From IMG/VR virus record IMGVR_UViG_3300025944_000008: a stretch of 64,000 bases of DNA; one strand, given 5' to 3'. Positions within the stretch are counted from its first letter, which is position 1, and every line of letters begins with the position of its first letter. The notes below the pieces were generated by a model, which had not been told where the DNA came from, did not search any database, and saw nothing but the letters and a program-made list of their open reading frames with translations. Of the stretch, positions 6,519 to 63,866 are shown piece by piece. A program made the position numbers and the translations under genes. The DNA is from a virus. Taxonomy: Duplodnaviria; Heunggongvirae; Uroviricota; Caudoviricetes.

Positions 6519-6526
6519 GAGCTCTC

Positions 6527-7078: not shown

Positions 7079-7081
7079 TGA

Positions 7082-10632: not shown

Positions 10633-10639
10633 GGTAGTC

Positions 10640-26044: not shown

Positions 26045-26054
26045 GAGGTGCTCG

Positions 26055-27012: not shown

Positions 27013-28209
27013 ATGCATCACGGACTACCCACTCTCGAGCTCACGAAGCCGGACGGATCCTTGCTCACCCGAATCGAAGCAGAGAAGCACGTGCGCGACG
27101 TTTGTAAGACGTCACACGTGCAACGTCGATTCGCGTGGGGGCAGCTTGGTCTGGACTACCAGTTCGTGTGGATGATGAAGCCCATCACCGTCACGCACTG
27201 GATCTTGGACGAGCTGATCCGCAAGAAGCAGATTGCCGGCGACCTGCTAGGGATCCAGCCGGAGCTCGACACCGACGACTCGTACTTCAACTCGTTCATC
27301 CAAAGGCTCGCTGTGTTCGTCCAAGACGGCCGAGCACTGCAACCCAAAGAAGGAGAAGGAATCATCATGGCCGATTTCCAGCAGATGGGTCCCCCGAACG
27401 GTCAGCCCCCCGGCGCTCCCGGCTACAACCCGCCTCCGCCTCCGGCCGGGTTCGGTCCGCCGCCCCAGCCGCCCGGGTACGCCCCGCAGCAGCCGCCGCA
27501 GGGCTACGCTCCTCCTCAGCAGGGCTTTGCCCCGCCCCAGCAGGGGTTCGGGCCGCCCCCGATGCAGCCGCCGCCTCAGCAGTACCAGCAGCCCCAACAG
27601 CCCTCGTTCCCGCCGCAGGGCGCTCCCCCGCCGATCCCGCCCCCGCAGATGGCCCCGCCGTCCATGGGTGCTCCTCCGCCGGCGATGGGCGCGCCCCCGA
27701 CCATGGCGCCTCCTCCGATGGGTGCTCCGCCCCAGCAGCCGCAGATGGCCCCTCCCGGCCAGCCTCCGGCCCCGCCGGCGCAGGCTCCGAGCAATCGCCG
27801 TGGTCGCGGCAAGGCGGCGGAAGGCGCTCCGCCGCAGCCGGGCGTGCTCCCCGGACAGCAGGCGCTGCCCCTCGGCAACGCTCAGCAGCCGCAGGGGTTC
27901 GGCGCCCCGCCGGCGATGGCTGGCTTCGGGCCTCCGGCCATGGGTCAGCCGCAACAGCAGCAGGGTGGTGGTGACACCGCGGCTCTCCAGGCTCAGATCA
28001 ACGAGCTGAAGGGCCTGGTCGCCGCCCAGAGCCGACAGCTCGAGGGCCTTCTCTCGATGGTGGGCCAGGTTCTCCATCTGAGCAAGGGCACGGACGCGGC
28101 GGTGTCGTGCATGATCCGCCCGTACTACGAGAAGCAGTTGCCCCAGCAGCCCCAGCAACTCGGGACCGAGGCGACGTTCAAGGAGATCGGCCTCCCGTAC
28201 CCTTCGTAG
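27013..28209 (+). CDS. P/Q-rich low-complexity protein, 398 aa (possible internal start at 27367)
   Basis: AAGGGGGAG RBS before the ATG at 27013. The central 220 aa are PPQ/PQQ/GAPP repeats. A second SD (AGGAGAAGGAA) precedes the in-frame ATG at 27367. Confidence 0.55.
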   Translation: MHHGLPTLELTKPDGSLLTRIEAEKHVRDVCKTSHVQRRFAWGQLGLDYQFVWMMKPITVTHWILDELIRKKQIAGDLLGIQPELDTDDSYFNSFIQRLAVFVQDGRALQPKEGEGIIMADFQQMGPPNGQPPGAPGYNPPPPPAGFGPPPQPPGYAPQQPPQGYAPPQQGFAPPQQGFGPPPMQPPPQQYQQPQQPSFPPQGAPPPIPPPQMAPPSMGAPPPAMGAPPTMAPPPMGAPPQQPQMAPPGQPPAPPAQAPSNRRGRGKAAEGAPPQPGVLPGQQALPLGNAQQPQGFGAPPAMAGFGPPAMGQPQQQQGGGDTAALQAQINELKGLVAAQSRQLEGLLSMVGQVLHLSKGTDAAVSCMIRPYYEKQLPQQPQQLGTEATFKEIGLPYPS

Positions 28210-39823: not shown

Positions 39824-39874
39824 CGCGGTCTATCTCCTTCATCGAGTATGTACTTGCTGTGGTAGTCTACCGAC

Positions 39875-40174
39875 GTGGACAAGCGCCGGTCAACAATGGT
39901 GTTCCAGGAGATGAAGCCCGAGGATGTCCGCAAGGCATTGGAGGGACACAAGAACATCTTGCAGCCAGCCCTCGAAGAGCACCAGAGGTTCTTCAAGAGC
40001 CTCTCCTGCTATCGCTGCGGGAGTGAGGTCATGCCGATCGTGAACACTCGACAGCTCTTCCGCGGCAACGCCATACTGCCCAATTTTTTAGCTAAGTGCC
40101 GCACTTGCGGGTGCGAGTTCGAGCCCAACACGAAGATTGAAGTGAAGGGGCCGGATCAGCCCCTTGGCACTTAG
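39875..40174 (+). CDS. Zinc-ribbon protein (CYRCG…CRTCGC), about 92-99 aa, encoded opposite to the surrounding late operon
   Basis: Fills the 347-nt gap between two minus-strand genes and has G/C-rich third positions. GTG at 39875 or ATG at 39896; no SD at either, so possibly leaderless. Stop overlaps the stop of the convergent 1569-aa gene. Confidence 0.45.
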   Translation: MDKRRSTMVFQEMKPEDVRKALEGHKNILQPALEEHQRFFKSLSCYRCGSEVMPIVNTRQLFRGNAILPNFLAKCRTCGCEFEPNTKIEVKGPDQPLGT

Positions 40175-43100: not shown

Positions 43101-44880
43101 CCAGCACCGTGTCGAACCCGGTGATGGCGAAGTCCCCCGCATCTGGTCCATCCAACACACGGATGGTATCGCCCACCACTGCCCCGAACGACTGGATGTT
43201 GATGGTCGTCAGTCGGAAGAGCTTCGAACCGACGGTCGTGCTCAAGTCCGAGACAGAGCCGGTATCGAACGGGAGCTTGGGAATCTTCGGCTCGACCAGG
43301 TCGATGTGGATGTTCCGAACGATTCGGGCGCGAAGCTGTGTCTGGGTCTGCGTGAAGAGCGTATCCAGACGAAGGCTGAACTCGTCGGGATCGTTGATCG
43401 CCAGGACTCGGTAGGAGCCGGCCAAGGCAGACGTCTCGATGATGACGATGTCTCCTACTTGGACGCCAGCCTGGACGAAGTCGATGGGAGACGTTCCACC
43501 GCTGAACGCGATGTTGGTTGGGCTACCAGTCGAGCCGTTGATGCGGAAGTTCGAAGCCGCGTTGCCAGCGATCGCCAAGACAGGACTGTCGTCGGTGATG
43601 TTGGGGAGGCTGTCCTGAAGCGTCGTATCGCTGTTGGGGCGAACGAAGACGTCCGTGTGACCGCCAAGATGGACGGTGCCATCAGCGACCTGAACGTTGG
43701 AGGCAATGCCTCCCGGCACTTCCGAGATGGTGATGAAGCCGCTCTTGAAAAGCGCGAACGAGCCGCTGCTTGGGGCAGTCACCGGCAGAGTCGTATCCAG
43801 AATGAGGATGTACTCTGTCGATGCCGCCAGCGTCGTGGCCGGCACCACCACTGAGATGTGCGCTTCGTAGACCGTGCTACCAGAGCTCGGCTTGAAGCGA
43901 ACGAGATCTCCCGCTTGGATGACGATATCGCCGTTTGGTCCACCATCTCGATAAATGAGGTTCGAGATGATGAGCCACTCACCGTAGTAGGTCGCACTGC
44001 CTGCGAGATGGAGGAAGCCCTCACTCGTGCCCTTGAGGATGTCCCGGTCCATTCCCGGGTCGCCGGCACCGATGATGCTGAGCGCCCGAACCGACGTGAA
44101 GAGGTCGGGAATGCGAGCCTCGATACCACGCTGGGTGACGAGGGAGCGCTCGGTGAGGGCCTGCGGAATGCGCCCGAGGTAGGTGGCGTTGTCTTCGCGA
44201 GGATTTCCGTCCGTGAACGCGGAGAGGTTCGAGACCTTCACCACGCCGGGCACGTCGTCGATGTTGGCGATCGCACCGACAGCAACGTTGTACTGGTCGC
44301 CGGGATTCTCTGCCTGGACGGTGATGTCCATGAAGTAGAGGTTGCCCTGACGATTGAAGAGCATCTGCGCGGTGGTGATCTTGAAGTTCTCGACCGGGAA
44401 GAAGTTGAGACCCGTGTTCGTGTAGATCTTCTTGTCGGTCGTGACGTTCACCGTCACGGGGGCGGCGAAGTAGAGGCGCACCAAACCGCCGGAGAAGTCA
44501 CCCGCCTCACGGGGCTCGAAGAAGTTCGCACCGAGGGCATCTGCCTCGGAGTCAGCCATCAGCTCGGCATTCACCACCGACTGGTTGGTCTTGACCGTCT
44601 GGATTTCCCTCTTGAAGGGCTCCAGGAACATCTGCATCGGGTTAGTGATGAGATCTTCGAGCTGCCCGCCATTGTCTGCCGCCAGAGCTGGGAACTCTTG
44701 GAGGAGGCGATCACGCAGGAAGGTCGGGATATCCGTCGCAAACGGGTCGGCAGCAAACCTATCGAGGATGGGCTGCACGATCTGGGTCTCCGCCGGCGAG
44801 CCGGGAGAGAGGTCGATCGTCGGATCATACGACGTGAGGAGGTTCTCGACGAAGTTCTTCAGATCGTCCGAGGACGCCAT
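40171..44880 (-). CDS. Very large virion structural protein, 1569 aa
   Basis: Long ORF in the late operon. Confidence 0.7.
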   Translation of the reverse strand: MASSDDLKNFVENLLTSYDPTIDLSPGSPAETQIVQPILDRFAADPFATDIPTFLRDRLLQEFPALAADNGGQLEDLITNPMQMFLEPFKREIQTVKTNQSVVNAELMADSEADALGANFFEPREAGDFSGGLVRLYFAAPVTVNVTTDKKIYTNTGLNFFPVENFKITTAQMLFNRQGNLYFMDITVQAENPGDQYNVAVGAIANIDDVPGVVKVSNLSAFTDGNPREDNATYLGRIPQALTERSLVTQRGIEARIPDLFTSVRALSIIGAGDPGMDRDILKGTSEGFLHLAGSATYYGEWLIISNLIYRDGGPNGDIVIQAGDLVRFKPSSGSTVYEAHISVVVPATTLAASTEYILILDTTLPVTAPSSGSFALFKSGFITISEVPGGIASNVQVADGTVHLGGHTDVFVRPNSDTTLQDSLPNITDDSPVLAIAGNAASNFRINGSTGSPTNIAFSGGTSPIDFVQAGVQVGDIVIIETSALAGSYRVLAINDPDEFSLRLDTLFTQTQTQLRARIVRNIHIDLVEPKIPKLPFDTGSVSDLSTTVGSKLFRLTTINIQSFGAVVGDTIRVLDGPDAGDFAITGFDTVLGGQGPIVDRAAGASTANLRYEVFTPSPGLTLPLVRIKGIEILDSTNQGTGITVPYGDAVDIRPTCDFQGAANEVRVLDSQIFIFPDATGLWPLSNTGVTPGANHDARYSQEIQSFDGFYRPITTQNGGNPITQNEVNIPPFLYDGNRNKLLAFTTRKDPNFTAFPGGDNRTSDVAEAKIGDSLTILDGPNQGSYLITDLRVLDMWSVTDAGHQKIAVVQVDPPFPVDPVKTMMNLIAAVTPGSAITGTDLLKTIQYSTDFFNGSGFWSLLQGRLQAVMTALSITISNGDLNALTKSLSFTGYSVGPSARGTLRVYFQEPVSAEFRSGINPTRFVDLLQPSRVFRLDPVLPDAQVLPESETQTPPSQWSRNTSERWFVNGGSPDANAFITTGSAYIKRGVEDGDEYEYYPAINDFPARDQMQSSWVCVTQAGSNVITVLLPAVPGHLTFIQPGQLFFIDSGPDIGAYNITEVITDELDGSGANPDRPVVQFRIDKTMTHSTAGVPGSLDLSPTARPAMPSDFSTGTTRVISSQARLYHPSFASAASPNVDWVSIYAVANTTVEEFGDDVAYLGTFLVIDQQSDINGDYVVLDRSPAFPDASTSPATAYPSTAQVFWILHSAPDATPTSTSGGGTALSNQYVRCRLYDSVPQTRFVNIPWSSGNPLIDHIPDLLPSDPNYTASSEQIKLKDKTGADSPISSSGNFLGLTNQSFYEHWSPYRVLRQGIHKISSTAMALQREGALYFVDLPAVGYGPQSEMNIAEDTALGIKENAKIDGYQLVVDNSIFTFSDQEQVSIVIPPSILPVGSTPGIVNEIDLAGQTIQITYDNAPLAEELQRFFNSPLDRVVVANYLIRHFLPAYVFLDVAYVGGSDTSVVAKDLINYINTVPPSVNQLVASQVENIAVRRGATKVTLPLTLIALVHDIDRKIRGLRSKNAIGAGDVPIFNGTYAQTYFIAGPDTSNTQPRPDGEQVFLTRT

Positions 44881-51313: not shown

Positions 51314-54300
51314 TTAGTTCAGGACTTCAACAGTGGTGACGGTTCCAGAGACAGTCTGGCTGGCAGCGCTGAGAGTAGCTTGCACGTCGACGGCAAGAGA
51401 TCCTGTCGTATTGATGGTGGTCGTACCGCCGTTGTTGTTCAAATCGGCGAAACCACGAGCGGTAGTCGAGGTCGGGAAGATGACGTTGCCGTCGACCATG
51501 ACCGTGCCGCTCGATCCACAGGTGCGGAAGGTCAGGAATGCATCGACGTCATAGCCCTTCGTGGTGAGCGACGCTCCAACCGTGCTGAGGGCGCCAGTCG
51601 TTGCGATTGTTGTGGCTCCCAGCTTGATGAGCCAGGTGAAGTTGCCTGGCGTCGCCGTAGTGGTGATGACCCCACCGTTGTGAATATGCAGGGTCTTGCC
51701 CGCCGCACAGAAGTTCGCTGGGAGGGTGGCCGTTCCAACGCCGGTGCCGACGATCGTGGCAGTGGTAGCAGTGTTGACCGTACCGTTCGCCGTTGAAGAG
51801 AAGGCGGTTCCCTGCAGCATCTGCTTGAGGCCGAGCTGCTGGGTAGCGAGAGCACTCTGAGTCGAGTCGGTCCAGACATCGCCGTTGGTCGGAGATCCTG
51901 GTGCCGACTGCGAGGCAACGTTGAAGGTGCCATTGACCGTCGAACGAACGCCCGTCTTCGAGATCGAGACGCTGGTAGCGTTCGAGGTGCCAAGCTGCAG
52001 CGCCGCGGCAGAGTCGACCGTAGTGTTACCGCTGCTCGTCGTGATGGTGGACGCTGCATTGCCGGTCAGACTGATGGCGCCAGTCAACTGAGTGAGGCCA
52101 CCAGTGATCGTCGTCGTAATACCAGAGCGGCCGATATTGACCGCGCTCGCGTTGGTGCCACCAATCGTGATGGTGCCGGCGGTGCCACTGTTGACCTTCG
52201 TTCCGCCATCGATCGTGACACTGCCACCGTTGACGTTGCCGCCGAACGCACCAACAGAGCCTGAGTTGCCAGCGGTGATGGTGACGTTACCACCAGGACC
52301 TGGGGGGCCCTGGGCACTGCCGTTTCCACCGTTTCCGCCGATGATTTGAGCGGCACCGCCAGTTCCGCCAGAGATGGAGTTGTTGTTGGTCGCTCCACCT
52401 GCTCCACCCTGCAAAGATGCAGCGCCACCGTTACCAGAAGCAGATCCGTTATTATTTGCTCCGCCAGCACCAGCGATAAGAGCCGCAGCGCCGCCCACAG
52501 CACCACCATCTGACGCACCACCGGCGCCGCCCTTACCCGCCGTGATAGTGACCGTTCCTGCAGCGCCAGACGTCGTCGCCGTTCCGCTCGAATCGCTACC
52601 GGCACCAGCGGTGATCGTAACCGCACCACCCTGTGCGCCAGATCCAGTGAAGCCGGAGATCATCGTGTTACCAGCACCGGCCAAGAGCTGAATCGAGCCA
52701 CCTGCGCCAGGGGCTGCGCTTGAGCTACCAACGGAACCCGCAGCAGCGTTGAGTTGGATACCGCCGCCAGTCGCAGCGGCACTTGATGCCGGAGTTCCAC
52801 CCGTGAGCACAACGGCACCACCGGCGCCGCCCGTAGCTCCCGTAGTCCACGTGCCTGCATTACCGCCAGTAATATTGACCGCGCCACCGGCGCCAACAGC
52901 TAGGCCAGAACCGCCGCTATTACCACCGACACCGCCATTGATGTTGACCGCACCGCCAACAGTAGCGCTGCTTCCGCTGCTTGTATTTCCTGCACCGGCA
53001 GTTATGAAGACTCGGCCAGCAGCACCAGGCGCAAACGCAAACCCATTTCCGCCGCCGCCAGCAACGACGGAGATATCACCACCGGCTCCACCAGCAACTG
53101 AACTACCTGGGCCTCCAAGCTGAGCTCCGAGGGCCAAAGGCGTGCCAGCGGTGTCGTTCGCAGCCGCCACCGTACCTGCTGTCAACTGCGAGGCAAAGAA
53201 GTTGCGACCACGAGCCGCATTGGAGCCGATGTCCATCGCCAGATCGCCACCTCCGAAGGCGATGGCCTGGCTGGTTCCAGAGATAGTGAGCGTGTTGTTG
53301 ATCGACATCGTGCCGCCAATTGCGACATTGGCGGGACTACCAACCGTCTGCACATCGATGACGGCAGTACCAAAGCCATCCTTCACAATGAGCGTGTCAG
53401 CGACGGTGCCGTTGTTGGCAATGATGACGCCACCACCATTGGCGGAGGACGTCGTGATCGTTTGATTTCCCGTCGTTGATCCGTGCGCATATACCGAAGA
53501 GAGCGTATTAGCGGCTGCGGTATAGGCCGTTGTCTGCGTAGTGCCGTCACTGAAATTCAGTGCGAGGGAGATTCCGGTCGCGCCAATATTGCAGTTGTTG
53601 GTGTTGGTGGTGCAGATATTGATATTGCCGAATGAGCCGGAGACCGTGTTGCCACCGCTGATAGTAACGCCACCACCGTTGCCCTGTCCGGCTCCACCAT
53701 CAGCTCCCGCATCACCACCTGCAATCGTGAGAAGGCCGCCGTTGCCAGACGCCTGCGCCGCCGATCCAGCACCACCCGTACCGCCCGTGAGGCTGGTCGG
53801 CCCACCGTCGCCCGCGAAGAGGGTGCTGGTAGCAGCCGCACCGGCACCAGCGCGAACGGTCATCGTGCCGCCGCTCTGGCCATTCACCGTCGAAGCGGTG
53901 CCGGCGTTGCCCGCGTTCACCGTGAGGTTCTTGCCCGCGACGTCTGTCGCAGCCGTCCCGATGTTGTACGTAGCGTTGGCCGTTCCCGAGAACTGCAGGA
54001 TCGAGGCGGACAGCGTCAGGTTGGTCGTATTGTTGAAGCGCCAGACGTAAGACGTTGCGCTCGCCGTATTGAAGATCGGCCCCGTTGTAAGAGTAGTACC
54101 GCCGATGGTGATTCCGGCCGTCGAGGTCGTTCCAATGGTGATTGAGCCGTTGACGCCCGTGCCGGATAGAGCACCACCATTGATTGCGACCGAGCCGCCG
54201 TTGCCGCCGCCAGTGCCGCCAGAAGTACCGCCCGAGCCACCATTGATGTTGACGCCACCACCGTTGCCTGGGCCGTTTGTCGAAGCCGCGCCCGTGCCGC

Positions 54301-57300
54301 CCTGACCGCCCTGCACAGTCGCCGCACCACCAACACCAGCAGTGCCTCCAGACGTAGTCGTCGCCGTACCACCCTGGCCCGCAAACAGCGTGGCAGTGCC
54401 ACCAGCACCACCAGGCGTCGCACCAGAGCCGTTGCCACCGTTGCCTTGGCCGAAGAGTAGAGCAGTGCCGGCCACGCCAGTGCCTGGAGTGGTGGCGCGG
54501 ACAATGCCGCCTGGGATGATGATGTTCTGGCCAGAGCGGCCGATGCTCACCTGACCACTGTTGGTCCCACCGATGGTGATGGTGCCGGCTGCTGCTGACC
54601 CAGAAGTGGTGCCCGTATCGATGACGACGTTGCCAGCGCTCGCTCCACCATTGCTACCCTGGACGAGACCGCCATTGCCGGACTGCAGTGTGAGGGTTCC
54701 GCCCGTGCCCGAGGCGCCTGGGGCCGTTCCGGTACCACCCTGCCCGCCTGCGCCAGCCTGAATGGTCCACGCTGCACCATTACCGCCGATGCCGCCGTTG
54801 CCAGTGCCGTTACCTGCTCCGGCGTCGCCACCCTTGTTCGCGGTCCATGCCCACGCTGCGCTCGTAGCGCCATTACCACCATTGCCGTTCGTAACGCCAG
54901 AACCGCCGTTGCCACTCTGAGCGCTCGAGATGGTAATTGCACCCGCCGAAGAGCCACTGTTGCCACTGCTTGCGAGACCCGCTCGACCAATGCCGGCGGT
55001 GATGGTAATTGAGGACCCAGTACCTGCACCGGCACCATTATCTGCGCCACCTGCCTGGCCACTGATCTGAATCGCACCAGCAGCGCCGCCAACAGCCGAT
55101 GCGGTACCGTCGGCAGGGATGGCGCCAAGAACTTGTGTTAGACCGCCCGCCGCGCCGGTGTTATTGCTGCCGCTGGGGGCGACACCCGTGCCGCCTCGAA
55201 TTGATGCAGTACCAGCAGTACCACCACCTGCGCCGTTATTCGTTCCACCAGGCCCACCACGAACAGTACCTGCGCCACCGTTGCCACCAAGGGCCGTAGC
55301 CGTGCCAGCGCCGCCAGAAGCACCCTGGATGACACTCTGGCCACCCGCGCCACCAGTCAGCGAGGCAGTGCCCGCGCCGCCGGTTCCGCCGTTCAGGTTA
55401 AGAGTTGCGCCGCTGCCACCACCCGTCGCTGAAGCGGCACCGCCATTACCAGCCTGAACGGTGAAAGTCGTTCCAGCAGTGTCAGCCGCAGCCGTCGCAA
55501 CATTGAGCGTCTTGCTCGTTCCACTTGCCCACTGAAGTGTGAGCATTGTGCCACCGAGAGTGACAGCGCTGACGGTTGCATCGAGAGTATTGCTCGCCCA
55601 CGTCAGATTCGAGTCGGCAAGTGTCGTCGAGCTCGAGGCGACAGGGATACGCCCAGAGGTCAAGCCACCGATCGTACCGCTAACTCCGCTCGATGTAGCC
55701 GCCGTAACCCGGCCCTGCGCATCGAGAGTGACTGAGCTGATGAAGTTGCCGCCACCGCCGATCGTGCCAGCACCAGGGCCGACGTTCGGAAGACCGATGG
55801 TGACCGTGCCTCCGAGAGAGACAGGGCTGCCGCTGACGCTGATCTGCCCCGCCGTTCCCGTGACGGTGATGGAGCTGTTGGCTAGCGCCGCATTCGGAAC
55901 TGTACCCCAAGACGGCGCAACACCAACGCCGCCAGAGAGCAGCACTTGGTTCGTCGCGACATCTGCAAGGTTGCCGATTGTATTCGATCCAGTTGCGTAA
56001 AGGATGTCGCCCGTTGTCGCCGCATTGGGCAAGGCCAGTGTCGACCAGACTGGAGCAGCCGCCGTTCCGCCAGACCGTAGATAGGAGCCAGCAGTGACGT
56101 CGGCGAGGCGAGACATTGCCTGTCCGCCGGACGTCGAGTACATCAGGTCGCCGGTAGTTGTCGGGGTACCAGTGAGGCAGGTTGTGCAGGTAAGAGTAAG
56201 CGTGCCGCCCAAGGAGACGGACCCACCGCCTCCAAGAGGGCCGGTCGTGCTGATCGTGACCGAGCTATTCGTCAGTGCTGCGTTCGGAACGGTTCCCCAA
56301 GCAGGTAGTGTTCCTGTGCCCTGCGACAGAAGAACCTGATTCACCGCGACAGCAGTGATGCGGCCGACTGCGTTCGTGGCTGTGGCAGCCAACAGATCGC
56401 CCGTCGTTGCGGCGTTCGGAAGAGTCAGCGTCGACCAGAGCGGTGCGGCAGACGAGCCTCCCGAGCGGAGGTACGAGCCAGCAGCAACGTCTGCGAGCGC
56501 GGTCATGGCCTGACCGCCGCTCGTCGAGTAGAGGATATCGCCGATCGCTGACGGTGTACCAACGATGCAAGTCGCGCAGGCGAGAGTGACAGTACCGCCC
56601 AGCGACACTGTGGTACCGCCAGTGATTGGCGAAGTTGTAGAGATGGTGATGGAGCTGTTCGTCAGAGCCGCATTCGGGACAGTTCCCCACGCAGGAAGAG
56701 TCCCGACGCCCTGTGACAGAAGGACTTGGTTCACCGCAACAGCGGTGATTCGACCCATCGTATTCGAGGCGCTCGCCGCGAATAGGTCACCCGTAGTCGC
56801 TGCGTTCGGGAGAATGAGTGTAGACCAAAGAGGCGCAGCACCAACGCCTCCGCTCCGCAGGTATGATCCGACCGCGACGTCGGCGAGCGGAGAGAGTGAC
56901 TGGCCTCCCGCGGTCGAGTACAGGATGTCGCCAGTTGCCGTCGGTGTTCCAACAAGGCAAGTGCTGCAAGTCAGCGTAAGCGAGCCGCCAAGAGAGACTG
57001 TTCCTCCGCCGCCCACCGGTGCTGTGGTGTTGATGGTGACGGAGCTGTTGGTCAGCGAGCCGTTGCCGATGTTGGTCAGCGTGTTGGAGGCGCCGCTGAT
57101 TGTCTTGTTCGTCAGCGTGTCAGCGGTAGCCCGGCCGACAATGGTATCGGTTGCGTCTGGGAGGGTAAGCGTTCTCGTCGTGCTCGGATTCCAGCTCAGC
57201 GTTCCAAGCCCGGCGAGGTTGTCGAACGAGATCGATTTCGTCGTTCCCGTACCGTCACCAATGACTGGGGCCAGCGTAAACGTATGCGTTCCGGTCCAGG

Positions 57301-58126
57301 TTGGGCTGAATCCCTGATTGACTGAGATCGTGCGGTCGGCGGAGAGGTCTCCGATCGCATTGATGCCTGTTCCGCCTGTCAGCGTGCGGGTGACGTTTGT
57401 GACGGCAGTGACTCGTCCCTGCGCATCGAGTCCGACGCTATCACCCGTTGACCAGGTGTACGTTCCGGCACCCGGGCCAACGCTGGGGAGCACGCCAGAT
57501 GGAAGAGACGTGCTCCACGTCGGCGCCGTTCCAACTCCGCCAGAGACGAGAACTGATCCAGTCGCGACATCCGCCAAGCTGCCAATCGAGTTCGTACCAG
57601 TGGCGATGAGAATATCGCCGGTAGTAGCCGCATTCGGAAGTTTGAGCGTCGACCACAGCGGCAGAGCTCCAACACCTCCGCTTCGCAGATAGGAGCCGGC
57701 CGCAACATCTGCCAGCGGGGCCATGGCCTGGCCACCACTGATCGAGTACATGAGGTCGCCGCCGGCGGTAGGAGTGCCGGTGAGGCAGGTAGCGCAGGTC
57801 AGAAGAACAGAGCCACCAAGAGGAACGGTCGGGCTGCCACCACCGAGTGGAGACGATCCCTGGATGCTGATCGTCGAGTTGGCGAGAAGCGCATTGCCGA
57901 TCGAGCCGTTCGGAATAGTGACGTCGGTTCTGTTCGACCCGGAATTATCCGTCGCCTGGAGCGCACCGCTGAAATTGGCGATGCGCCTCTGAGGCAGAGC
58001 CGTTCCACCATTTTGAATCGTGGTGTATGACGGCGTCGGCGAAGGGGATTGTGCAAGTGCTGCAGATGCTGTGAAGAGCGCAAGCGCCCACACAGCAGCT
58101 CGGCATAGCCTCGTCGGTACCGACAC
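51314..58126 (-). CDS. Giant Gly/Thr/Ala/Ser-rich repeat protein with N-terminal signal peptide, 2270 aa (fibre/adhesin-like), GTG start
   Basis: GTG at 58126 with GGAGGA 9 nt upstream. N-terminus MSVPTRLCRAAVWALALFTASAALAQ|SP is signal-peptide-like. About 134-aa tandem repeats carry a CxTC pair (LGG…LTC(A/S/T)TC…GTPT…GD(I/L)(L/M)YS…LADVA.GSYLRSGG…LPNAATTGD), then long GGxGGxG tracts and a distinct C-terminal domain. Confidence 0.75.
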   Translation of the reverse strand: MSVPTRLCRAAVWALALFTASAALAQSPSPTPSYTTIQNGGTALPQRRIANFSGALQATDNSGSNRTDVTIPNGSIGNALLANSTISIQGSSPLGGGSPTVPLGGSVLLTCATCLTGTPTAGGDLMYSISGGQAMAPLADVAAGSYLRSGGVGALPLWSTLKLPNAATTGDILIATGTNSIGSLADVATGSVLVSGGVGTAPTWSTSLPSGVLPSVGPGAGTYTWSTGDSVGLDAQGRVTAVTNVTRTLTGGTGINAIGDLSADRTISVNQGFSPTWTGTHTFTLAPVIGDGTGTTKSISFDNLAGLGTLSWNPSTTRTLTLPDATDTIVGRATADTLTNKTISGASNTLTNIGNGSLTNSSVTINTTAPVGGGGTVSLGGSLTLTCSTCLVGTPTATGDILYSTAGGQSLSPLADVAVGSYLRSGGVGAAPLWSTLILPNAATTGDLFAASASNTMGRITAVAVNQVLLSQGVGTLPAWGTVPNAALTNSSITISTTSPITGGTTVSLGGTVTLACATCIVGTPSAIGDILYSTSGGQAMTALADVAAGSYLRSGGSSAAPLWSTLTLPNAATTGDLLAATATNAVGRITAVAVNQVLLSQGTGTLPAWGTVPNAALTNSSVTISTTGPLGGGGSVSLGGTLTLTCTTCLTGTPTTTGDLMYSTSGGQAMSRLADVTAGSYLRSGGTAAAPVWSTLALPNAATTGDILYATGSNTIGNLADVATNQVLLSGGVGVAPSWGTVPNAALANSSITVTGTAGQISVSGSPVSLGGTVTIGLPNVGPGAGTIGGGGNFISSVTLDAQGRVTAATSSGVSGTIGGLTSGRIPVASSSTTLADSNLTWASNTLDATVSAVTLGGTMLTLQWASGTSKTLNVATAAADTAGTTFTVQAGNGGAASATGGGSGATLNLNGGTGGAGTASLTGGAGGQSVIQGASGGAGTATALGGNGGAGTVRGGPGGTNNGAGGGTAGTASIRGGTGVAPSGSNNTGAAGGLTQVLGAIPADGTASAVGGAAGAIQISGQAGGADNGAGAGTGSSITITAGIGRAGLASSGNSGSSAGAITISSAQSGNGGSGVTNGNGGNGATSAAWAWTANKGGDAGAGNGTGNGGIGGNGAAWTIQAGAGGQGGTGTAPGASGTGGTLTLQSGNGGLVQGSNGGASAGNVVIDTGTTSGSAAAGTITIGGTNSGQVSIGRSGQNIIIPGGIVRATTPGTGVAGTALLFGQGNGGNGSGATPGGAGGTATLFAGQGGTATTTSGGTAGVGGAATVQGGQGGTGAASTNGPGNGGGVNINGGSGGTSGGTGGGNGGSVAINGGALSGTGVNGSITIGTTSTAGITIGGTTLTTGPIFNTASATSYVWRFNNTTNLTLSASILQFSGTANATYNIGTAATDVAGKNLTVNAGNAGTASTVNGQSGGTMTVRAGAGAAATSTLFAGDGGPTSLTGGTGGAGSAAQASGNGGLLTIAGGDAGADGGAGQGNGGGVTISGGNTVSGSFGNINICTTNTNNCNIGATGISLALNFSDGTTQTTAYTAAANTLSSVYAHGSTTGNQTITTSSANGGGVIIANNGTVADTLIVKDGFGTAVIDVQTVGSPANVAIGGTMSINNTLTISGTSQAIAFGGGDLAMDIGSNAARGRNFFASQLTAGTVAAANDTAGTPLALGAQLGGPGSSVAGGAGGDISVVAGGGGNGFAFAPGAAGRVFITAGAGNTSSGSSATVGGAVNINGGVGGNSGGSGLAVGAGGAVNITGGNAGTWTTGATGGAGGAVVLTGGTPASSAAATGGGIQLNAAAGSVGSSSAAPGAGGSIQLLAGAGNTMISGFTGSGAQGGAVTITAGAGSDSSGTATTSGAAGTVTITAGKGGAGGASDGGAVGGAAALIAGAGGANNNGSASGNGGAASLQGGAGGATNNNSISGGTGGAAQIIGGNGGNGSAQGPPGPGGNVTITAGNSGSVGAFGGNVNGGSVTIDGGTKVNSGTAGTITIGGTNASAVNIGRSGITTTITGGLTQLTGAISLTGNAASTITTSSGNTTVDSAAALQLGTSNATSVSISKTGVRSTVNGTFNVASQSAPGSPTNGDVWTDSTQSALATQQLGLKQMLQGTAFSSTANGTVNTATTATIVGTGVGTATLPANFCAAGKTLHIHNGGVITTTATPGNFTWLIKLGATTIATTGALSTVGASLTTKGYDVDAFLTFRTCGSSGTVMVDGNVIFPTSTTARGFADLNNNGGTTTINTTGSLAVDVQATLSAASQTVSGTVTTVEVLN
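55800..57850. repeat. About five tandem copies of a roughly 400-nt repeat inside the giant gene
   Basis: The protein-level 134-aa repeats are mirrored at DNA level. Near-identical peptides recur in same-frame antisense ORFs at about 55870, 56240, 56650, 57030 and 57730. Confidence 0.6.
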
Positions 58127-58181
58127 TTGTGGAGTCCTCCGTCCAGCATTCTCCCCTGATGGGGAAGGACTGGGAAGAGAA

Positions 58182-58409
58182 CTACTCGTTAGAAGGTTCT
58201 AGCGGGGAGCCGAGATAGTCGTTGATCGAGTTGGCCAGAATTTTCGAAGCGCCCTGAGCGTTGGCGTCTTGAAGACCGACGCTGCCTCCTCGCTTCTTGG
58301 AGATGTTGTCGAGGAAGTCGAATTGTGCATTCAACCGGTTCTTCTCTTTCGAGAACCAGTCGTCGGCGGCATCTTTGAGCTCTTGGAGTCTCTGCGCTGC
58401 ACCAGCCAT
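58182..58409 (-). CDS. Small protein translationally coupled to the sigma factor gene, 75 aa; candidate sigma partner / anti-sigma
   Basis: ATG overlaps the sigma-gene stop (TGATG at 58411-58407). Helical, charged sequence. Confidence 0.5.
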   Translation of the reverse strand: MAGAAQRLQELKDAADDWFSKEKNRLNAQFDFLDNISKKRGGSVGLQDANAQGASKILANSINDYLGSPLEPSNE

Positions 58410-59227
58410 CAGACCAGCTCCATTGCCTCTTTCAGCTTGTCGACGAGGCGATTACGGATGCGGGAGACCTTGGAAGGGTGAATGCCGGTCGTCTTGGCGA
58501 TCTGGCCCGGCTGATGGCGAGGCTTGCCATTCATGCCGAAGGTGTACTCGTAGACCGTCCGCTCTTCGGGCGTGAGGTCGTACTGCATCAGCTTGATCGC
58601 CTCGAGCTCCTTGGGCGTCATGAGCTCAGCGGGGTCGCTCTCGAAACCAGACGCTGGAAGATCTCGCCGGCGCTCCTTGATCATCTGAACGACGCGGCGC
58701 TGAGGCCAACCAAGATGGTCGGCCAACGTCTTGGTATCCGGCTCGTGCCCGAGTTGGTTCATCAGATGCTCCTTCGCCGCATCAAATCGACGAATCTGGG
58801 AGATCTGCCCCTCGGGGATCTTGCCGATGTTCTGGTAGGTCTTGATGTAGCGAGACGACTTCTGCAGGTTCGTCTGGACCCAGGTGTTGAGCTGAGTTCC
58901 GCGCTTGGGGTTGAAGGTCTTGATAGCGTTGACGAAGTGCCGATCAATCTCGTGATGGATGGCGGCGGTTGGAATCTCGACCTTGTTGGCGTACTTATTC
59001 GCCTCTCGAACGAGAAGTGGCTTGTAGCTCTCGTACAGAGGGATGAGGTGCTCCGGCTTCTGACCATGGGTGTTCCAATGGTGCCAGAGCTCGAGCTCCT
59101 TCTTCTGCGTCTCCTTCATCTCCTCCCGCGACTTCTTCGGCGCGGCTGTCTTGACGTGCTGATCGAGGAAGAGATCGAGGATCTGCGTGTGGTAGTCCGG
59201 GATGTGCGCCAACTGCCGGTTGAGCAT
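58409..59227 (-). CDS. Sigma-70-family RNA polymerase sigma factor (phage-encoded), about 272 aa
   Basis: Region 2: LIPLYESYKPLLVREANKYANK…AIKTFNPKRGTQLNTWVQTNL. Region 4 HTH: LTPEERTVYEYTFGMNGKPRHQPGQIAKTTGIHPSKVSRIRNRLVDKLK. Start assigned to the ATG at 59227 that overlaps the upstream stop (TGATG). The track's longer Arg/Gly-rich N-terminus is in overlap with the upstream gene. Confidence 0.8.
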   Translation of the reverse strand: MLNRQLAHIPDYHTQILDLFLDQHVKTAAPKKSREEMKETQKKELELWHHWNTHGQKPEHLIPLYESYKPLLVREANKYANKVEIPTAAIHHEIDRHFVNAIKTFNPKRGTQLNTWVQTNLQKSSRYIKTYQNIGKIPEGQISQIRRFDAAKEHLMNQLGHEPDTKTLADHLGWPQRRVVQMIKERRRDLPASGFESDPAELMTPKELEAIKLMQYDLTPEERTVYEYTFGMNGKPRHQPGQIAKTTGIHPSKVSRIRNRLVDKLKEAMELV

Positions 59228-59610
59228 CAGCCACCCGTGCGGATTGCGCCCAGCTCGTTGATGAAGCTGCGCACTGCCGCAGCCTTGTAATGCGTCGGAT
59301 ATGCCTGGAACGTGCTCGACTCGTTCAGGACTGCCATCGCCACCTTGAGCAGGGGCGCTGACGTGTCCTTCTCGAACTTGTCCGACGGGAACCACTTGTT
59401 GGCAAACCGCGTCTCGACCTTCTGAGCCTCTCCCATGTTCTTGAAGAGGGTGCCGAGCGTATTGCGGTTGTCGTTGAGGTTCTTGTCGTGCTCGGAGTTG
59501 GCGACGGCCGCGCTGTCGACGTCGTGGTCGAACGTCGGGCCGATCTTCCCGCCATCGGAGATCGATGCCCGCTTCTCCAGCATCTTGATGTAGTCGTCTC
59601 GACGCAGCAT
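59227..59610 (-). CDS. Hypothetical protein, 127 aa
   Basis: ORF coupled to the sigma gene. Confidence 0.45.
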   Translation of the reverse strand: MLRRDDYIKMLEKRASISDGGKIGPTFDHDVDSAAVANSEHDKNLNDNRNTLGTLFKNMGEAQKVETRFANKWFPSDKFEKDTSAPLLKVAMAVLNESSTFQAYPTHYKAAAVRSFINELGAIRTGG

Positions 59611-59611
59611 C

Positions 59612-60223
59612 TCAGACTCCTTGTGGCGCGCTGGACTCGCGGCCGATCATGCCGGGCATCGACTTCACGACGCCGCGGTGTAGCTTGTTTTCGAAGTGTC
59701 CCTGCTGCTGCCCCGTCTGGAGTGCTCGAGCAGGAGTGAAGGTGCTGGAGCCGAGCATTGCAGTCTTCATCTTCTGCTGCTTGATGACCGCCCGCCGGCG
59801 GAGCGCCCGATCGGCGAGAGCAACACCGCTGCCGAGCGCCACGGCCTTTCCCAGGTGCTTCGGTGGAATCTTGAAATCGTGGCCGTGATGGAGGGTGTGC
59901 GCCAGCGTCGCCGCACCAGCCCCCGTCATGCCGCCCTTGAGTGCTGCAGAGGCAAAGTTGGAGGCAGTCTCGTAGGGAGTGCCTGTCGCCGTCGGCTTCT
60001 TGCCGCGCCAGTTGTAGGCGCTGGGCGGGGTGTAGCCCATGAAGCCCATGGCAAGCTTCGGCTTGAAGTTGGTCTCGACTTCGGCGTTCGATCTGATCTG
60101 GCCGCCGGGCAGGTACTCCTTGCCCTTTGCCTCGGCCATCATCGCCCGAATGTCCGCGTCCTGAACCTCGGTGGCGATCTTGATCAGCTCGGCCGTGAAG
60201 GCCCTGTAGCCCAAGAGGTTCAT
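59612..60223 (-). CDS. Hypothetical protein, 203 aa
   Basis: ORF; ATGA overlap with the upstream 71-aa gene. Confidence 0.45.
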   Translation of the reverse strand: MNLLGYRAFTAELIKIATEVQDADIRAMMAEAKGKEYLPGGQIRSNAEVETNFKPKLAMGFMGYTPPSAYNWRGKKPTATGTPYETASNFASAALKGGMTGAGAATLAHTLHHGHDFKIPPKHLGKAVALGSGVALADRALRRRAVIKQQKMKTAMLGSSTFTPARALQTGQQQGHFENKLHRGVVKSMPGMIGRESSAPQGV

Positions 60224-60438
60224 CAGTAGGCCTGGTTCTGCATCCGCATGGCGCGACCCATCCGCCAGTCCTTGTGGGCGCGCTGGAGAGCCAGGGTACC
60301 GAGAGAGCCGGCGACCAGACCAGGGACGAGGAGCGACGGCTTCTTCGCCACCGCGGCTGCTGCGCTGGCTTGCTTCTCGAAGGCGATCTTCTTGAGCTCG
60401 TCTTCGAAAGCTGCCGCCATTTTCTTCGTGAAGTCCAT
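60223..60438 (-). CDS. Hypothetical protein, 71 aa
   Basis: GGAGGA RBS before the ATG at 60438. Confidence 0.4.
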   Translation of the reverse strand: MDFTKKMAAAFEDELKKIAFEKQASAAAAVAKKPSLLVPGLVAGSLGTLALQRAHKDWRMGRAMRMQNQAY

Positions 60439-60491
60439 GCGTCCTCCGTACCAGAAGATACCCGCCGCAGGGCCTGGCGGGAAGTGGTTTG

Positions 60492-63400
60492 TCAGCCTAA
60501 GAGCCCGATACCCAAGGATCCCGTACCTCCGCCAAGCTCATCGGAATACTCCTGCACCGCGGCACGCCGATCCGGTCTCGGGTCGAGAGCCTTCGAGATC
60601 GCGAACTTCTTGCCCTTCGTCTTGAGACGAGGGAGTTCTTGGTCGGGGTTGTCGAGAAGACCAACGAGGTTGCTGTAGGGCCCAACCGCCGTCGAGTGGA
60701 AGCCAGGCACGCCCGCGGTCTTGCTCAGGGTGCTGCCGTTCTGCTCATATGTCAGATCGACAGACCCCAAGACGTTCTCAAGCGTCGCCACCGGCCGGTG
60801 GGTGTAGTCCGCAATGAAGCGGTGGACGTCCAGGCCCTGACGCCGCACCTCGCCGTAGAGATAGGCGAGGACGTCAGCCGACTGCTCGATGGACGGGATG
60901 TCAGAGAGCTGATCTGGCGTGGCATTCGAGAGGATCTGCTGAATCTTCTGAATGTCACCGTCCGCCGCCTCGACCTGGCTCACCAGCTCGCGCTGCTTCT
61001 GCCTGTTGGTCCCCGTCGCACCGGTGCCAAACGGCGTCTGGAACACGGCCTGATCGACGATGGACCCAGTTCCAAAAAACTGCTGGTAGATGTTGTCCCC
61101 GATGAAGAGGTTCGAGTAGAGCGGCGAGAACCAGGGCGGCCGCAGCGACTCTTCAACCGGAATGGGGCGCAAAACCTTGTTGCTGGTCTGCTGCTCGTAG
61201 ATGACAGCCTTCTGCCAGACATAGACCGTCTTGGCGTTCTTGTTCGGCTTCAGAGCTGTCTGAACGCTCTGCTTCCGTCCAGTCTTGCCCTGTTCGGCGA
61301 ACTCGAGGTCCTGGATGCTCACTGCCATGACCTGGTCGGAGGCCACCTGGATCTGCGTGATGGTCCCTCCCTTTGGACCCTTCTGACCGACGCGAAGCTT
61401 GCCGGCGGTGGCGGGGGAGAGAATCTTCGTACCGTTCGGCCTCTCCGCCTGAATCGTCTTGGCTCGAAGAGGGATGGACCCGCTCGGTTGGACAAGCGTC
61501 GAAGACGCCACCACGGTTGAGCTCAGGTCGATGGAGGGCGCTTGAAGGATGGGGGCGATGCTGTCGAGGTTTGCCGGACGGAAGACAGCACTCGGCCGGC
61601 TCGTGGCCTCCCACGGGTCCAGAGGCTGCTGGTCGCCGAACGGATTGACGTTCTGCTGTGCCTGCTGGTTGTCTTGCGCGATCTGCTTCGCCTCGTCAGG
61701 CGCATTCTGAGTAGTGATGTCGATGAGAGACTTGAGGTTCTTGTAGTCGCCCTGTGAAATGAGTGAGGCCGCATCGAGGACCGTACTCACCTCGGTCTTC
61801 TGCGTATCCGACTGGTACTGGGCCGCGTAGAGCGACAGGAAGTCATCCTCGGTGATGCGGTGCGACCGGGCGTGCGTCATCGTGACGCTCGTGGTCGCTC
61901 CCTCTTGGCCCACCTGGTGCGTCATCGTTGCAATCATGCCGAGGTAGTGCGTCGGCGCTCTGAAGGCGGAGGCGAGCGTCCCAATGTTGGCGATGATATC
62001 CGTCATGTCCGTCGGCTTGATCTCGCTGTTGTTCGTATCCGCCAGGGCGGCGTCGACCAACTGCGGATCGAGAATGAACGGCTTGGTGATGAGCAGTGCT
62101 GGGAAGCCAGGCACCAAGAACGGATTGAACTTCAGCGAGACCTCGAGTGTCCGCGCCGCGAAGCGGTACTTCAGGTAGTTGAAGTTCGCAGCGCGCTGAG
62201 CGTAGTTGACCGCCTGGCCCACCACGTTCTTCTTGATCTGCGCCTCTCGCTTGTTGGCGATGTAGTTGACCTCAGAGACGAGCTCGAACTTGGGCAGAAT
62301 GCCGGAGAACTTCTCCCACGGCAGAAGAGACCGGATGCCAGACGCGCCCTGCTTCTTGGCGAGCTCTTGGATCTCCTTCATCGATGGAGCGTAGTGGTAG
62401 TTGGCGAGAAGCTTCTCGTCCGACGGGATGAAGGTCATGCCCGTCTGCAGACGAAGACGCGTCACTTCCTGAAGGAAGTTGCGACTATAGCTGAACTGGG
62501 TGTACTGCTCCGGGAAGATGACGTTGCACTTCGGAGGAGCAGCAAAGAAGCAATCTGGCCGGAAGACCTGGGTCTGCAGGCGATCGAGCTCTGGCGGGTT
62601 GTTGACCGTCTTCTGCGTGGTGGTCTTCTTCGCCTGGTCCTTGCCAGCCGCACGTGCATCGTTGAGGGCGTTCTGGATTGAGGTCCAGTTGTCTCCGATG
62701 TGCGCAGGCCCGGAGGCGATCTTGGTTGGCTGGTTCTTCGCCTGAATGAGATTGAGCGCGAACGAGATAGCCTTCTGAAGGTTCTTGGTGACCTTCGGAT
62801 TCATGTTCGGGGTCAGAAGAATACGGTTCAGGGAGGAAATCAGGTTCTGCGCGATCTGAGCCGTACTGGCGATCCAGCCGAGGTTGTGGAGCTGAGCATT
62901 GCCGTCGTCGAATTGCTTCTTCGCCTGCTGAGCGAGGTCGGTGAGCTCTGTGTCGACGGCGGCCGGGAAGTTGAATGAGCTCGAGACGGTTACCTTCTTC
63001 GTCGAGGTCGTCTGCTGCACGCCAGGGACGTAGAGAGGTGACGTAATCGGCACCACCTCGTAGTAGACCCAATTGAAGAGCAGCTTGATCATGTCTCGGA
63101 ACGTGACGAGCTCTCCAAGGCTGGTAATACCTCGCTCGAGCCACGCCATGAACTCCTTCTCATCGAAGAGTCGCTGAGCCGTGTTGTCGTTCTGCTCAGC
63201 GGTGATCTGCTGGAGGAGGTGATTCTTGAGCTCGGCAATGGTGAAGAAGTCGTTGATGCCGTGCGTGTGCCGCGGGACGCCACCCATAGCCTCGAGGAGC
63301 GAGATGATGCCTCCCATGAGGCCCTTCACGTTCTGGAGACCGGGCGTCTGCGGCTTCTGGTTGAGGTACGTATTCATCACCGACGAGTGGCCATCGATGA

Positions 63401-63866
63401 TGTCGTTGAAGATGGCGTTCCCGCCGGCCCAAATTGCGCTCTCTTCCGTGAGGAAGTTACCGCTCGGGCCGTAGGTGATCATCATCTGGTACGCAGTATC
63501 CCAGTACGTCGAGAAATCCGCGCACTGCAGAACCGCGGAGCGGGAGAGGGGCGTCTCTTGCATCGCCAGCCCGATGACTTCACCGCAGAACAAGAGGCTG
63601 TAGTTCGAGAGGGGGATGGAAGCGTCCGTTTGGGTCTCTGGGCCAGCGCCAGGCGGGACCGCATCTGGCAGGTCGTTGGTGTAGTCGTAGAAGAAGACAT
63701 GGACCATCGTCCTCGGCTTGAAGTTCATGATGCTATCGAGAGGGATGATCTGAATCGCGGCTGTCGCCGGCGAGTTCAAGCTCACCTGCACGGTGACCCC
63801 GATGACGGGGACCTCGATGCCCTCAAGAAACAGCCTCAGCTTGAGCTGCTGCCCGACTCCGTGCAT
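60492..63866 (-). CDS. Large virion-type protein, 1124 aa
   Basis: Long ORF; AAGGGG RBS before the ATG at 63866. Followed by a GC hairpin (60461-60481). Confidence 0.7.
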   Translation of the reverse strand: MHGVGQQLKLRLFLEGIEVPVIGVTVQVSLNSPATAAIQIIPLDSIMNFKPRTMVHVFFYDYTNDLPDAVPPGAGPETQTDASIPLSNYSLLFCGEVIGLAMQETPLSRSAVLQCADFSTYWDTAYQMMITYGPSGNFLTEESAIWAGGNAIFNDIIDGHSSVMNTYLNQKPQTPGLQNVKGLMGGIISLLEAMGGVPRHTHGINDFFTIAELKNHLLQQITAEQNDNTAQRLFDEKEFMAWLERGITSLGELVTFRDMIKLLFNWVYYEVVPITSPLYVPGVQQTTSTKKVTVSSSFNFPAAVDTELTDLAQQAKKQFDDGNAQLHNLGWIASTAQIAQNLISSLNRILLTPNMNPKVTKNLQKAISFALNLIQAKNQPTKIASGPAHIGDNWTSIQNALNDARAAGKDQAKKTTTQKTVNNPPELDRLQTQVFRPDCFFAAPPKCNVIFPEQYTQFSYSRNFLQEVTRLRLQTGMTFIPSDEKLLANYHYAPSMKEIQELAKKQGASGIRSLLPWEKFSGILPKFELVSEVNYIANKREAQIKKNVVGQAVNYAQRAANFNYLKYRFAARTLEVSLKFNPFLVPGFPALLITKPFILDPQLVDAALADTNNSEIKPTDMTDIIANIGTLASAFRAPTHYLGMIATMTHQVGQEGATTSVTMTHARSHRITEDDFLSLYAAQYQSDTQKTEVSTVLDAASLISQGDYKNLKSLIDITTQNAPDEAKQIAQDNQQAQQNVNPFGDQQPLDPWEATSRPSAVFRPANLDSIAPILQAPSIDLSSTVVASSTLVQPSGSIPLRAKTIQAERPNGTKILSPATAGKLRVGQKGPKGGTITQIQVASDQVMAVSIQDLEFAEQGKTGRKQSVQTALKPNKNAKTVYVWQKAVIYEQQTSNKVLRPIPVEESLRPPWFSPLYSNLFIGDNIYQQFFGTGSIVDQAVFQTPFGTGATGTNRQKQRELVSQVEAADGDIQKIQQILSNATPDQLSDIPSIEQSADVLAYLYGEVRRQGLDVHRFIADYTHRPVATLENVLGSVDLTYEQNGSTLSKTAGVPGFHSTAVGPYSNLVGLLDNPDQELPRLKTKGKKFAISKALDPRPDRRAAVQEYSDELGGGTGSLGIGLLG

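Follow-up and report, generated by a model that had tools for sequence, protein, structure and literature searches.

Some bacteriophages pair a sigma-like protein with a small (~100 amino acids, aa) helical partner, as SPO1 does with gp34 and gp33, which are encoded by adjacent genes, and T4 with gp55 and gp33. Jumbo phages that lack an RNA polymerase (RNAP) of their own use their own sigma factors with the RNAP of the host, according to reviews (PMC7824862, PMC13282480), one of which mentions T4 gp33 (PMC7824862). Here we describe a sigma gene, and the gene for a 75-aa helical protein that follows it, in a 64,000-nucleotide (nt) stretch of a tailed-virus genome (Caudoviricetes; IMG/VR record IMGVR_UViG_3300025944_000008) that we refer to as the window. 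Judged by its sequence and by a structural model, the 272-aa product of the first gene is a divergent phage factor of the sigma-70 family with domains 2, 3 and 4. A sigma factor alone is routine, such proteins being well known in phages and ordinary in big ones; the new points of greatest use are a candidate promoter and the constant place that the sigma gene occupies within a cluster of baseplate genes.

An initial annotation of the window had recognised a sigma-70-family factor among virion genes, and on both counts it was right. The Pfam model Sigma70_r3 matched residues 144-187 of the 272-aa protein above its cut-off (29.2 bits vs 25.3), with Sigma70_r2 (E=0.008, 16.3 bits vs a 24-bit cut-off) and Sigma70_r4 (E=0.012) detectable below theirs, and PHROG 351 ('RNA polymerase sigma factor') matched at E=4.9e-14. 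When phmmer was run against the PDB, residues 64-270 aligned to RpoS (E=1e-7). Region 2 of RpoS and SigA from the PDB aligned to residues 64-132, as did the RpoD_Cterm, SigBFG and RpoS models; the NCBIfam SigB/F/G model covered residues 66-269, and the SigK and SigE C-terminal models of the same collection matched residues 214-269 (E=7.7e-8). NCBIfam models for RpoD, SigB/F/G, RpoS, FliA and SigK all matched, far under their curated cut-offs; the score was 39 bits vs 234 for SigBFG and 37.0 vs 42.9 for the sigma70-ECF superfamily (ECF, extracytoplasmic function). The protein fell into none of the curated NCBIfam subfamilies (RpoD, RpoS, FliA/WhiG, SigB/F/G, ECF or the sporulation sigmas), and because every match lay far below its curated cut-off we regard it as a divergent branch of its own.

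The AlphaFold2 (AF2) model, built with 119 homologues, was all-helical with three domains and a predicted confidence score (pLDDT) of 87. In a Foldseek search of the PDB with this model, the best 50 matches listed were all sigma-factor chains at a probability of 1.00, the majority taken from transcription complexes that contain sigma. Domain 2 (~58-132) is preceded by an N-terminal extension that includes a helix (residues 12-25) and followed by domain 3 (~139-185) and the helix-turn-helix of domain 4 (~205-271, with AF2 helices 240-247 and 251-271), so that all three domains of a sigma-70-family protein with group-3-like architecture are present. The recognition helix of region 4.2 (H250, S252, K253, S255, R256, I257, R258) is invariant or nearly so across the 119 homologues, a constancy that fits a fixed -35 box. 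In total, 164 members of the sigma family were detected, all metagenomic, on contigs of up to 211 kb. A scan of IMG/VR with the single sigma sequence found nothing; a scan with the alignment recovered contigs.

The gene for the 75-aa protein is real and conserved, and its family carries no annotation in the databases searched. It has 110 homologues at 58-100% identity, and a profile search of 1.8 billion representatives returned 95 clusters (50% identity) of the family, nearly all of them full-length at 62-91 aa. Members share the pattern RLdeL..A...W...E..RL..E..FL..IL.GRtG..L......A..L....I..FL. In the close clade of the window this is the best-conserved gene of its block (68-76% identity, vs 53-79% for sigma and 30-49% for a 203-aa protein encoded nearby). 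Its synonymous sites are saturated, with a lower synonymous codon identity than in the sigma gene (0.35 vs 0.46), and its amino acids are retained. The divergence of synonymous sites and the retention of amino acids together mean that selection acts on the protein and not on the DNA. A constraint at the nucleotide level, such as an embedded RNA or promoter, was rejected because the synonymous sites are more diverged than those of sigma.

In the AF2 model of the 75-aa protein, a helix spanning residues 2-39 (pLDDT above 90) is followed by a Gly turn and a helix at residues 46-67 of low confidence. This second helix is the most conserved part of the protein; its low confidence is as expected if the protein folds on a partner. 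A coiled-coil-like hydrophobic seam with conserved small residues runs along the protein, whose sequence contains neither Cys nor His and no membrane segment. The family consensus also lacks Cys and His, and no zinc motif of the ZAS type (HxxxCxxC) is present in the protein. Searches for relatives of known function gave little. A Pfam scan at E<=1 produced two insignificant matches (HTH_72 and Hikeshi-like_C) and an NCBIfam scan none; PHROGs searched with 83 family members yielded scattered single-member matches only, at E 8e-4 or weaker. A fold search of the model against the PDB gave 0 matches, a sequence-profile search of the family against the PDB gave GCN4 and RAG1 coiled-coil noise only, and tblastn with three family members against 50,697 GenBank phage records gave nothing. 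Among the homologue matches there was no natural fusion of sigma with the 75-aa protein.

The sigma gene and the 75-aa gene are the last two of a conserved five-gene block that encodes proteins of 71, 203 and 127 aa, sigma and the 75-aa protein. A search for -35/-10-like motifs of the kind that the initial annotation had called for found CTTCCC-N18 sites upstream of 60438 and 58126, the starts of the 71-aa gene and of a gene for a 2270-aa protein. These sites, P1 and P2 (Table 1), bracket the block. P1 lies 8 nt past the stop codon of the gene for a 1124-aa protein and 16 nt ahead of the ATG of the 71-aa gene, and P2 lies 4 nt past the stop codon of the 75-aa gene and 21 nt ahead of the GTG of the 2270-aa gene. 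The orthologous P1 site is kept in nine relatives (L001, L002, L003, L017, L018, L019, L023, L024 and L025; such labels denote the related loci compared, L007 being Salmonella phage Arash), with spacers that have fully diverged; in L017 it reads CTTCTC..TTACTC. L001 also has CTTCCC-N18-GAGAAT after its small gene, as at P2, and more copies of the CTTCCC motif stand ahead of other, non-orthologous genes.

Over seven clade loci, CTTCCC occurs 4.9 times per kb in intergenic sequence vs 0.30 times per kb in coding sequence (~16-fold; p=4.6e-12). Of 21 gaps that measure 35-120 nt, 11 contain it, in each case 2-9 nt past the stop codon of the preceding gene, and the enrichment was repeated in loci outside the set that had served to define the motif (p=3e-4). 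At 13 of 15 sites nAnnnT follows it after 18 or 19 nt, for which chance would give ~8% per site. No CTTCCC-N18/19-nAnnnT occurs in the replication module of the window. The motif has the form of a promoter, with two blocks at a fixed spacing, a non-conserved spacer and a position on the coding strand upstream of genes. The -35 box does not resemble TTGACA; the -10 box retains its two universally recognised positions, A as the second and T as the sixth nucleotide. We therefore lean slightly towards regarding CTTCCC-N18/19-nAnnnT as a phage-specific promoter, a candidate drawn from comparison of sequences; that the phage sigma reads it is plausible, at somewhat under an even chance.

CTTCCC as an RNA element was rejected in favour of a signal at the level of DNA: spacer hairpins occur in some loci only, and CUUCC/GGAGG pairing with the Shine-Dalgarno sequence would comprise 5 bp with a ~30-nt loop. 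A scan of positions 50-64 kb for consensus sigma-70 promoters and terminators returned fewer matches than shuffled sequences did. Elsewhere in the window, just past the ribonucleotide reductase gene, a GC-rich hairpin at 79..117 (GGCGGGAAGG-TTGCGCAT-TCCTTCCCGCC) has A-run and T-run flanks and looks like a bidirectional intrinsic terminator; this hairpin accounts for two CTTCCC matches.

We propose that the phage sigma factor, most likely, binds the core RNAP of the host and redirects it to phage promoters; its use of the host enzyme is probable, in line with the reviews cited above and with the non-exhaustive searches described below, which showed no RNAP of the phage's own. By reading CTTCCC-N18-nAnnnT it would let the five-gene block turn itself on in positive feedback, and by reading the same motif at P2 it would start the downstream fibre genes too. 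The 75-aa protein, presumably made from the transcript that also encodes sigma, would be an accessory binder of sigma or of the sigma-containing holoenzyme that tunes its activity, with a docking site that could be the N-terminal helix of sigma. Taken as a whole, with a phage sigma on host RNAP, a self-read motif and an accessory protein, the explanation is tentative and clearly short of even. Its last part, an action of the 75-aa protein on sigma, is possible but doubtful, level with a structural or assembly role for that protein.

Several observations weigh against this explanation. With its gene inside a structural operon, the sigma would appear too late to launch late transcription, unless P1 is active earlier. 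In all 64 kb of the window the motif has just two matches, no more than shuffled sequences yield (mean 2.8), and its -10-like part varies between non-orthologous sites. The initial annotation had presumed that late genes use a phage-specific promoter read by this sigma. A motif does exist in the structural region, but with just those two matches it is not a general late-gene signal, and it was rejected in that role. Moreover, a host sigma could read the motif.

The junction of the two genes adds to these doubts. As annotated, the TGA of sigma and the ATG of the 75-aa gene overlap by 1 nt in TGATG, and the second of these open reading frames (ORFs) does encode a small protein that AF2 predicts to be helical. 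Overlaps are generic in the window, however: 18 of its 47 same-strand junctions overlap (6 by exactly 1 nt), and 36 of 47 are no more than 15 nt apart. Since the 127-aa and sigma genes are joined by TGATG as well, the overlap is not specific. Among relatives, the sigma/75-aa junction varies between an overlap of 14 nt and a gap of 7 nt, and the translational coupling once read into it is weakened accordingly. Nor does the 75-aa protein have a recognisable anti-sigma domain (ZAS/zf-HC2, RseA_N, FlgM, SpoIIAB, Rsd or AsiA), an absence that the initial annotation had already noted and that Pfam, NCBIfam, PHROG and PDB searches upheld; it resembles no known co-sigma protein either. The classic sigma/anti-sigma layout that it nonetheless saw here comes down to adjacency, and the adjacency is broken in three loci. 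One 388-aa gene separates sigma from the small gene in L008; six genes (5 kb), for a sulfotransferase, an APS kinase and an HNH endonuclease among others, do so in L101; and in L012 an RNase HII gene lies upstream of the small gene and the adjacency to sigma is lost.

Conservation of the 75-aa gene alongside sigma was nevertheless found where it had been suggested to look. The small gene stands directly 3' of sigma in the window, L001-3, L017-19, L020 (a 174-kb contig of a metagenome-assembled genome, MAG) and L023-25, and likewise in the more distant lineages L009, L015/16 (marine) and L013/14, with sigma profile scores from ~450 bits to as little as 96-123 bits, the last in L013/14. This is the arrangement in most lineages. 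Four distant ones, Arash, L021, L022 and L026, hold sigma in the same slot without a detectable member of the 75-aa family, a further point against partnership. For Arash, L022 and L026, hhalign probabilities of 0.2% or less led us to reject a hidden homology between the small family and the proteins encoded after sigma. The family was never clearly seen without a nearby sigma; sigma does occur without the family. In favour of partnership we have a weak hint from sequence comparison. All sigmas with a nearby small protein have an N-terminal extension of 24-73 residues with a short helix (L/V)(D/E)xF(L), and three of the four unpartnered lineages have none, starting 10-11 residues before the conserved WxxW motif (p~0.02 on 11 lineages, phylogeny ignored).

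Two features of these relatives may be recorded here. Within the L101 insert, at 5363..7116, the APS kinase and sulfotransferase genes lie on the opposite strand, together with the HNH endonuclease gene. L020 (CAZNAX010000001.1, 174 kb) was assigned to a MAG bin named 'Desulfatibacillum sp.' and L022 (JBAZRX010000012.1, 32 kb) to one named 'Candidatus Paceibacterota'; both are probably phage contigs swept into bacterial bins, and weak hints of a host at best.

The alternative that survives best makes the 75-aa protein unrelated to sigma: a small component or assembly chaperone of the baseplate/fibre module, neighbour to sigma by inherited gene order. We hold it possible, to the same limited degree as a role on sigma. 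In L008, L101 and L012, where the tie to sigma is loosened, the small gene still sits directly ahead of a conserved structural block (a 95-111-aa gene, next a 325/347-aa family and last a 300-aa CarboxypepD_reg-like family), which fits a structural or assembly role equally and tells against the proposed action on sigma; in the window it directly precedes the fibre-like 2270-aa gene. Because the whole module is syntenic, co-conservation with sigma is unspecific, and linkage cannot tell a partner of sigma from the next gene of a baseplate module. The heptad-like hydrophobic seam and the conserved small residues would suit an oligomeric coiled coil. T4 has a 79-aa helical, oligomeric fibre chaperone, gp57A, and by analogy the 75-aa protein might serve likewise. 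In Arash the non-homologous gp11, which occupies the same position, was detected in virion preparations (PMC10585845). Yet the 75-aa protein resembles no structural or chaperone family of PHROG, Pfam or PDB. In the window clade the genes that follow vary greatly, in contrast to the constant sigma gene ahead of it, and it is encoded upstream of the candidate P2, in the unit of sigma.

A second alternative concerns sigma itself, which would be a virion protein (the 75-aa protein perhaps being its keeper), made late along with baseplate proteins, packaged, and sent in with the DNA for the first transcription in the following cell, as an early-gene and not a late-gene factor. The slot of the sigma gene, after a large (~800-1200 aa) protein with an N-terminal LEGIEVP-type motif and before baseplate genes, is kept out to Arash, L021, L022 and L026, even at a sigma identity of only 28-34%, and Gly-rich hydrophobic segments, as in membrane-active ejection proteins, occur in the proteins encoded between the large one and sigma. 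In Arash, the only cultured phage with a homologue, gp10 (OQ632216; 29% identity over 85% of the query) follows a 1165-aa lysozyme-domain structural protein and one small gene, and precedes by three genes a Baseplate_J/gp6-like wedge protein. Mass spectrometry of Arash virions covered 100% of Gp10, with 24 unique peptides and 467 spectra (PMC10585845), denser than for the obvious contaminant enzymes (PMC10585845). A beta/beta' RNAP was present too: the most abundant protein in the preparation was the phage RNAP Gp206 (PMC10585845). In Gp206, beta is fused to the N-terminal portion of beta', whose C-terminal portion is a separate protein, Gp216. On the other side, 116 of 252 proteins were reported from the preparation, with ribonucleotide reductase, ligase and primase among them (PMC10585845), and a preparation with so many enzymes was not clean. 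Furthermore, the virion data come from Arash alone, which lies outside this clade and whose sigma is just 29% identical.

The window's clade gave no sign of an RNAP of its own. No RNAP domain was found in 33 proteins scanned from the window, a scan that left out several small ORFs; the four IMG/VR contigs with this type of sigma showed no Arash-type RNAP in a scan that needs exact 8-residue patterns; and a protein search with Gp206 had no match on the 183-211-kb sigma contigs among the best 120 of 425. These searches were non-exhaustive: they gave no evidence of a phage RNAP in the clade but do not prove its absence. Given the unclean Arash preparation and the lack of an RNAP sign in the window or on the IMG/VR sigma contigs, we consider a virion-delivered sigma unlikely, a minority reading. 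Its fullest form, in which the 75-aa proteins are a new family of sigma-binding proteins that dock on the N-terminal helix peculiar to partnered sigmas, restrain the sigma or keep it ready for delivery, and so act as keepers of a virion-loaded, injected sigma, seems quite improbable. The Arash RNAP genes lie at L007 93..4670 and 9441..11261. RNAPs of this type, fused or unfused, were found at no fewer than 74 IMG/VR loci (L027-L100), the longer contigs being mostly of 130-193 kb, and in 425 protein clusters; they appear to mark a large, little-studied phage group with its own RNAP and a sigma-70-family factor.

Small phage proteins such as T4 AsiA and T7 Gp2/Gp5.7 bind the sigma or the RNAP of the host. 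That the 75-aa protein likewise disables the primary sigma of the host, or its RNAP, to let the phage sigma compete would suit its size and all-helical nature, its expression together with the phage sigma as implied by gene layout, and its high conservation, which could mirror a conserved host target, but it is very improbable, as the protein resembles neither AsiA nor any Pfam family (no significant match even at E<=1) and host-takeover genes are normally early and not in a structural operon.

The surroundings of the locus are those of a structural module. One half of the window (G+C 60%) holds a replication module with a helicase, UDG, DnaB, DnaG, a family A polymerase and a RecA-like protein, plus ribonucleotide reductase, and the other half is a long structural module on the minus strand; in the ORF map of the window all genes of the sigma region are on that strand. 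Baseplate and fibre genes surround sigma, among them one for a 1569-aa gp6-like wedge protein (40171..44880) with a Baseplate_J domain and a match to PHROG 6 (baseplate wedge). The features of the sigma region are listed in Table 1 from 5' to 3' on the minus strand.

Table 1. Genes, gaps and candidate promoters of the sigma region, with positions in the window
Feature	Position	Strand	Remarks
1124-aa protein	63866..60492	minus	First in 5' to 3' order of the region
Gap, 53 nt	Between 1124-aa and 71-aa genes	minus	
Candidate promoter P1	60455..60484	minus	CTTCCC 60484..60479, 18-nt spacer, TATCTT 60460..60455
71-aa protein	60223..60438	minus	Opens the five-gene block; Gly/Ala-rich hydrophobic segment at residues 34-52 (hydropathy); N-terminal motif AFxxELxKIAxE
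203-aa protein	59612..60223	minus	N-terminal motif in common with 71-aa protein; Gly-rich hydrophobic stretches
127-aa protein	59227..59610	minus	Clade-specific; stop overlaps sigma ATG as TGATG
Sigma-70-family factor, 272 aa	58409..59227	minus	ATG at 59227, TGA 58411..58409
75-aa helical-hairpin protein	58182..58409	minus	Predicted helix 2-39, RGG turn, helix 46-67
Gap, 55 nt	Between 75-aa and 2270-aa genes	minus	
Candidate promoter P2	58148..58177	minus	CTTCCC 58177..58172, 18-nt spacer, GAGAAT 58153..58148
2270-aa fibre-like protein	58126..51314	minus	GTG start; begins 55 nt past 75-aa gene

Within the block, the 71-aa protein has homologues at 41-68% identity in six related loci; for the 127-aa protein just 4 of 6 clade loci gave homologues (30-72% identity). 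Neither the 71-aa nor the 203-aa protein found a match in Pfam or PHROG. The N-terminal motif that they share reads AAFEDELKKIAFEKQ in one and RAFTAELIKIATEVQ in the other, and in L026 a 131-aa protein encoded before sigma resembles both; the two could be membrane-active or ejected tail proteins. The N-terminus of the 2270-aa protein (58126..58040, minus strand; MSVPTRLCRAAVWALALFTASAALAQ) resembles a Sec-type signal peptide, complete with AxA cleavage site, an uncommon feature for a phage tail fibre. This protein has no homologue in the related loci compared and no domain in a Pfam scan.

Further afield, Rfam and tRNA scans across the window found nothing. On the minus strand, 39893..39864 is a good match to a sigma-70-like promoter (TTGACC-N18-TAGACT) ~40 nt upstream of a 768-aa gene. 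A 99-aa ORF with two CxxC pairs (zinc-ribbon-like) occupies 39875..40174 on the plus strand, opposite to the structural operon in whose midst it lies, and its start overlaps that match. At 8563..8592, in the divergent gap between a 472-aa gene on the minus strand and the plus-strand replication module, there is a tandem imperfect direct repeat (GCAAAACCTCCGAAT / GCAAAAACTCCAAAT) that could serve as an operator or as an element of an early promoter. An apparent 968-nt gap at 26044..27013 (plus strand) is packed with small ORFs rich in CxxC pairs and may be a cluster of genes for small zinc-ribbon proteins.

The locus matters in several respects. A sigma gene that stays fixed inside a baseplate cluster out to Arash has an odd home for a transcription factor, which raises the question of when and where the factor acts. 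The locus also marks out a sizeable lineage of ~200-kb phages, none of them cultured. With its 95 clusters, the 75-aa family offers a cheap, concrete candidate for a new modulator of sigma or RNAP. Finally, if the candidate promoter is confirmed, late or auto-regulated units could be annotated across the lineage from sequence alone.

Set beside known systems, the locus resembles bacterial sigma/anti-sigma operons (ECF sigmas with ZAS/RseA-type partners, FliA-FlgM, SigF-SpoIIAB) in having a sigma gene followed by a small, putatively co-transcribed gene and, perhaps, a self-read promoter ahead of the operon. It differs from them in that the 75-aa protein has no anti-sigma domain, HxxxCxxC zinc site, kinase fold or transmembrane segment, and in that the adjacency of sigma and small gene is not universal. 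What the SPO1 and T4 pairs have in common with this locus is a phage sigma-like protein and a small helical one. Their small partners show no sequence similarity to the 75-aa protein; their sigmas are truncated and lack region 4, for which the partner stands in, whereas region 4 is present here. In Arash, gp10 occupies the same slot as this sigma, but it has no N-terminal extension and another region 4.2, and Arash has no homologue of the 75-aa protein and a beta/beta' RNAP of its own. From the group 2 jumbo phages (PMC7824862, PMC13282480) the window is set apart by its family A polymerase, DnaB, DnaG and RecA-like protein, as opposed to a T4-like family B replisome, and by a sigma that scores under all curated subfamily cut-offs and is encoded within a baseplate gene cluster. 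What it has in common with them is a sigma factor with regions 2-4, a presumed takeover of the host core RNAP and a large genome, here of ~200 kb as judged by contigs of 183-211 kb.

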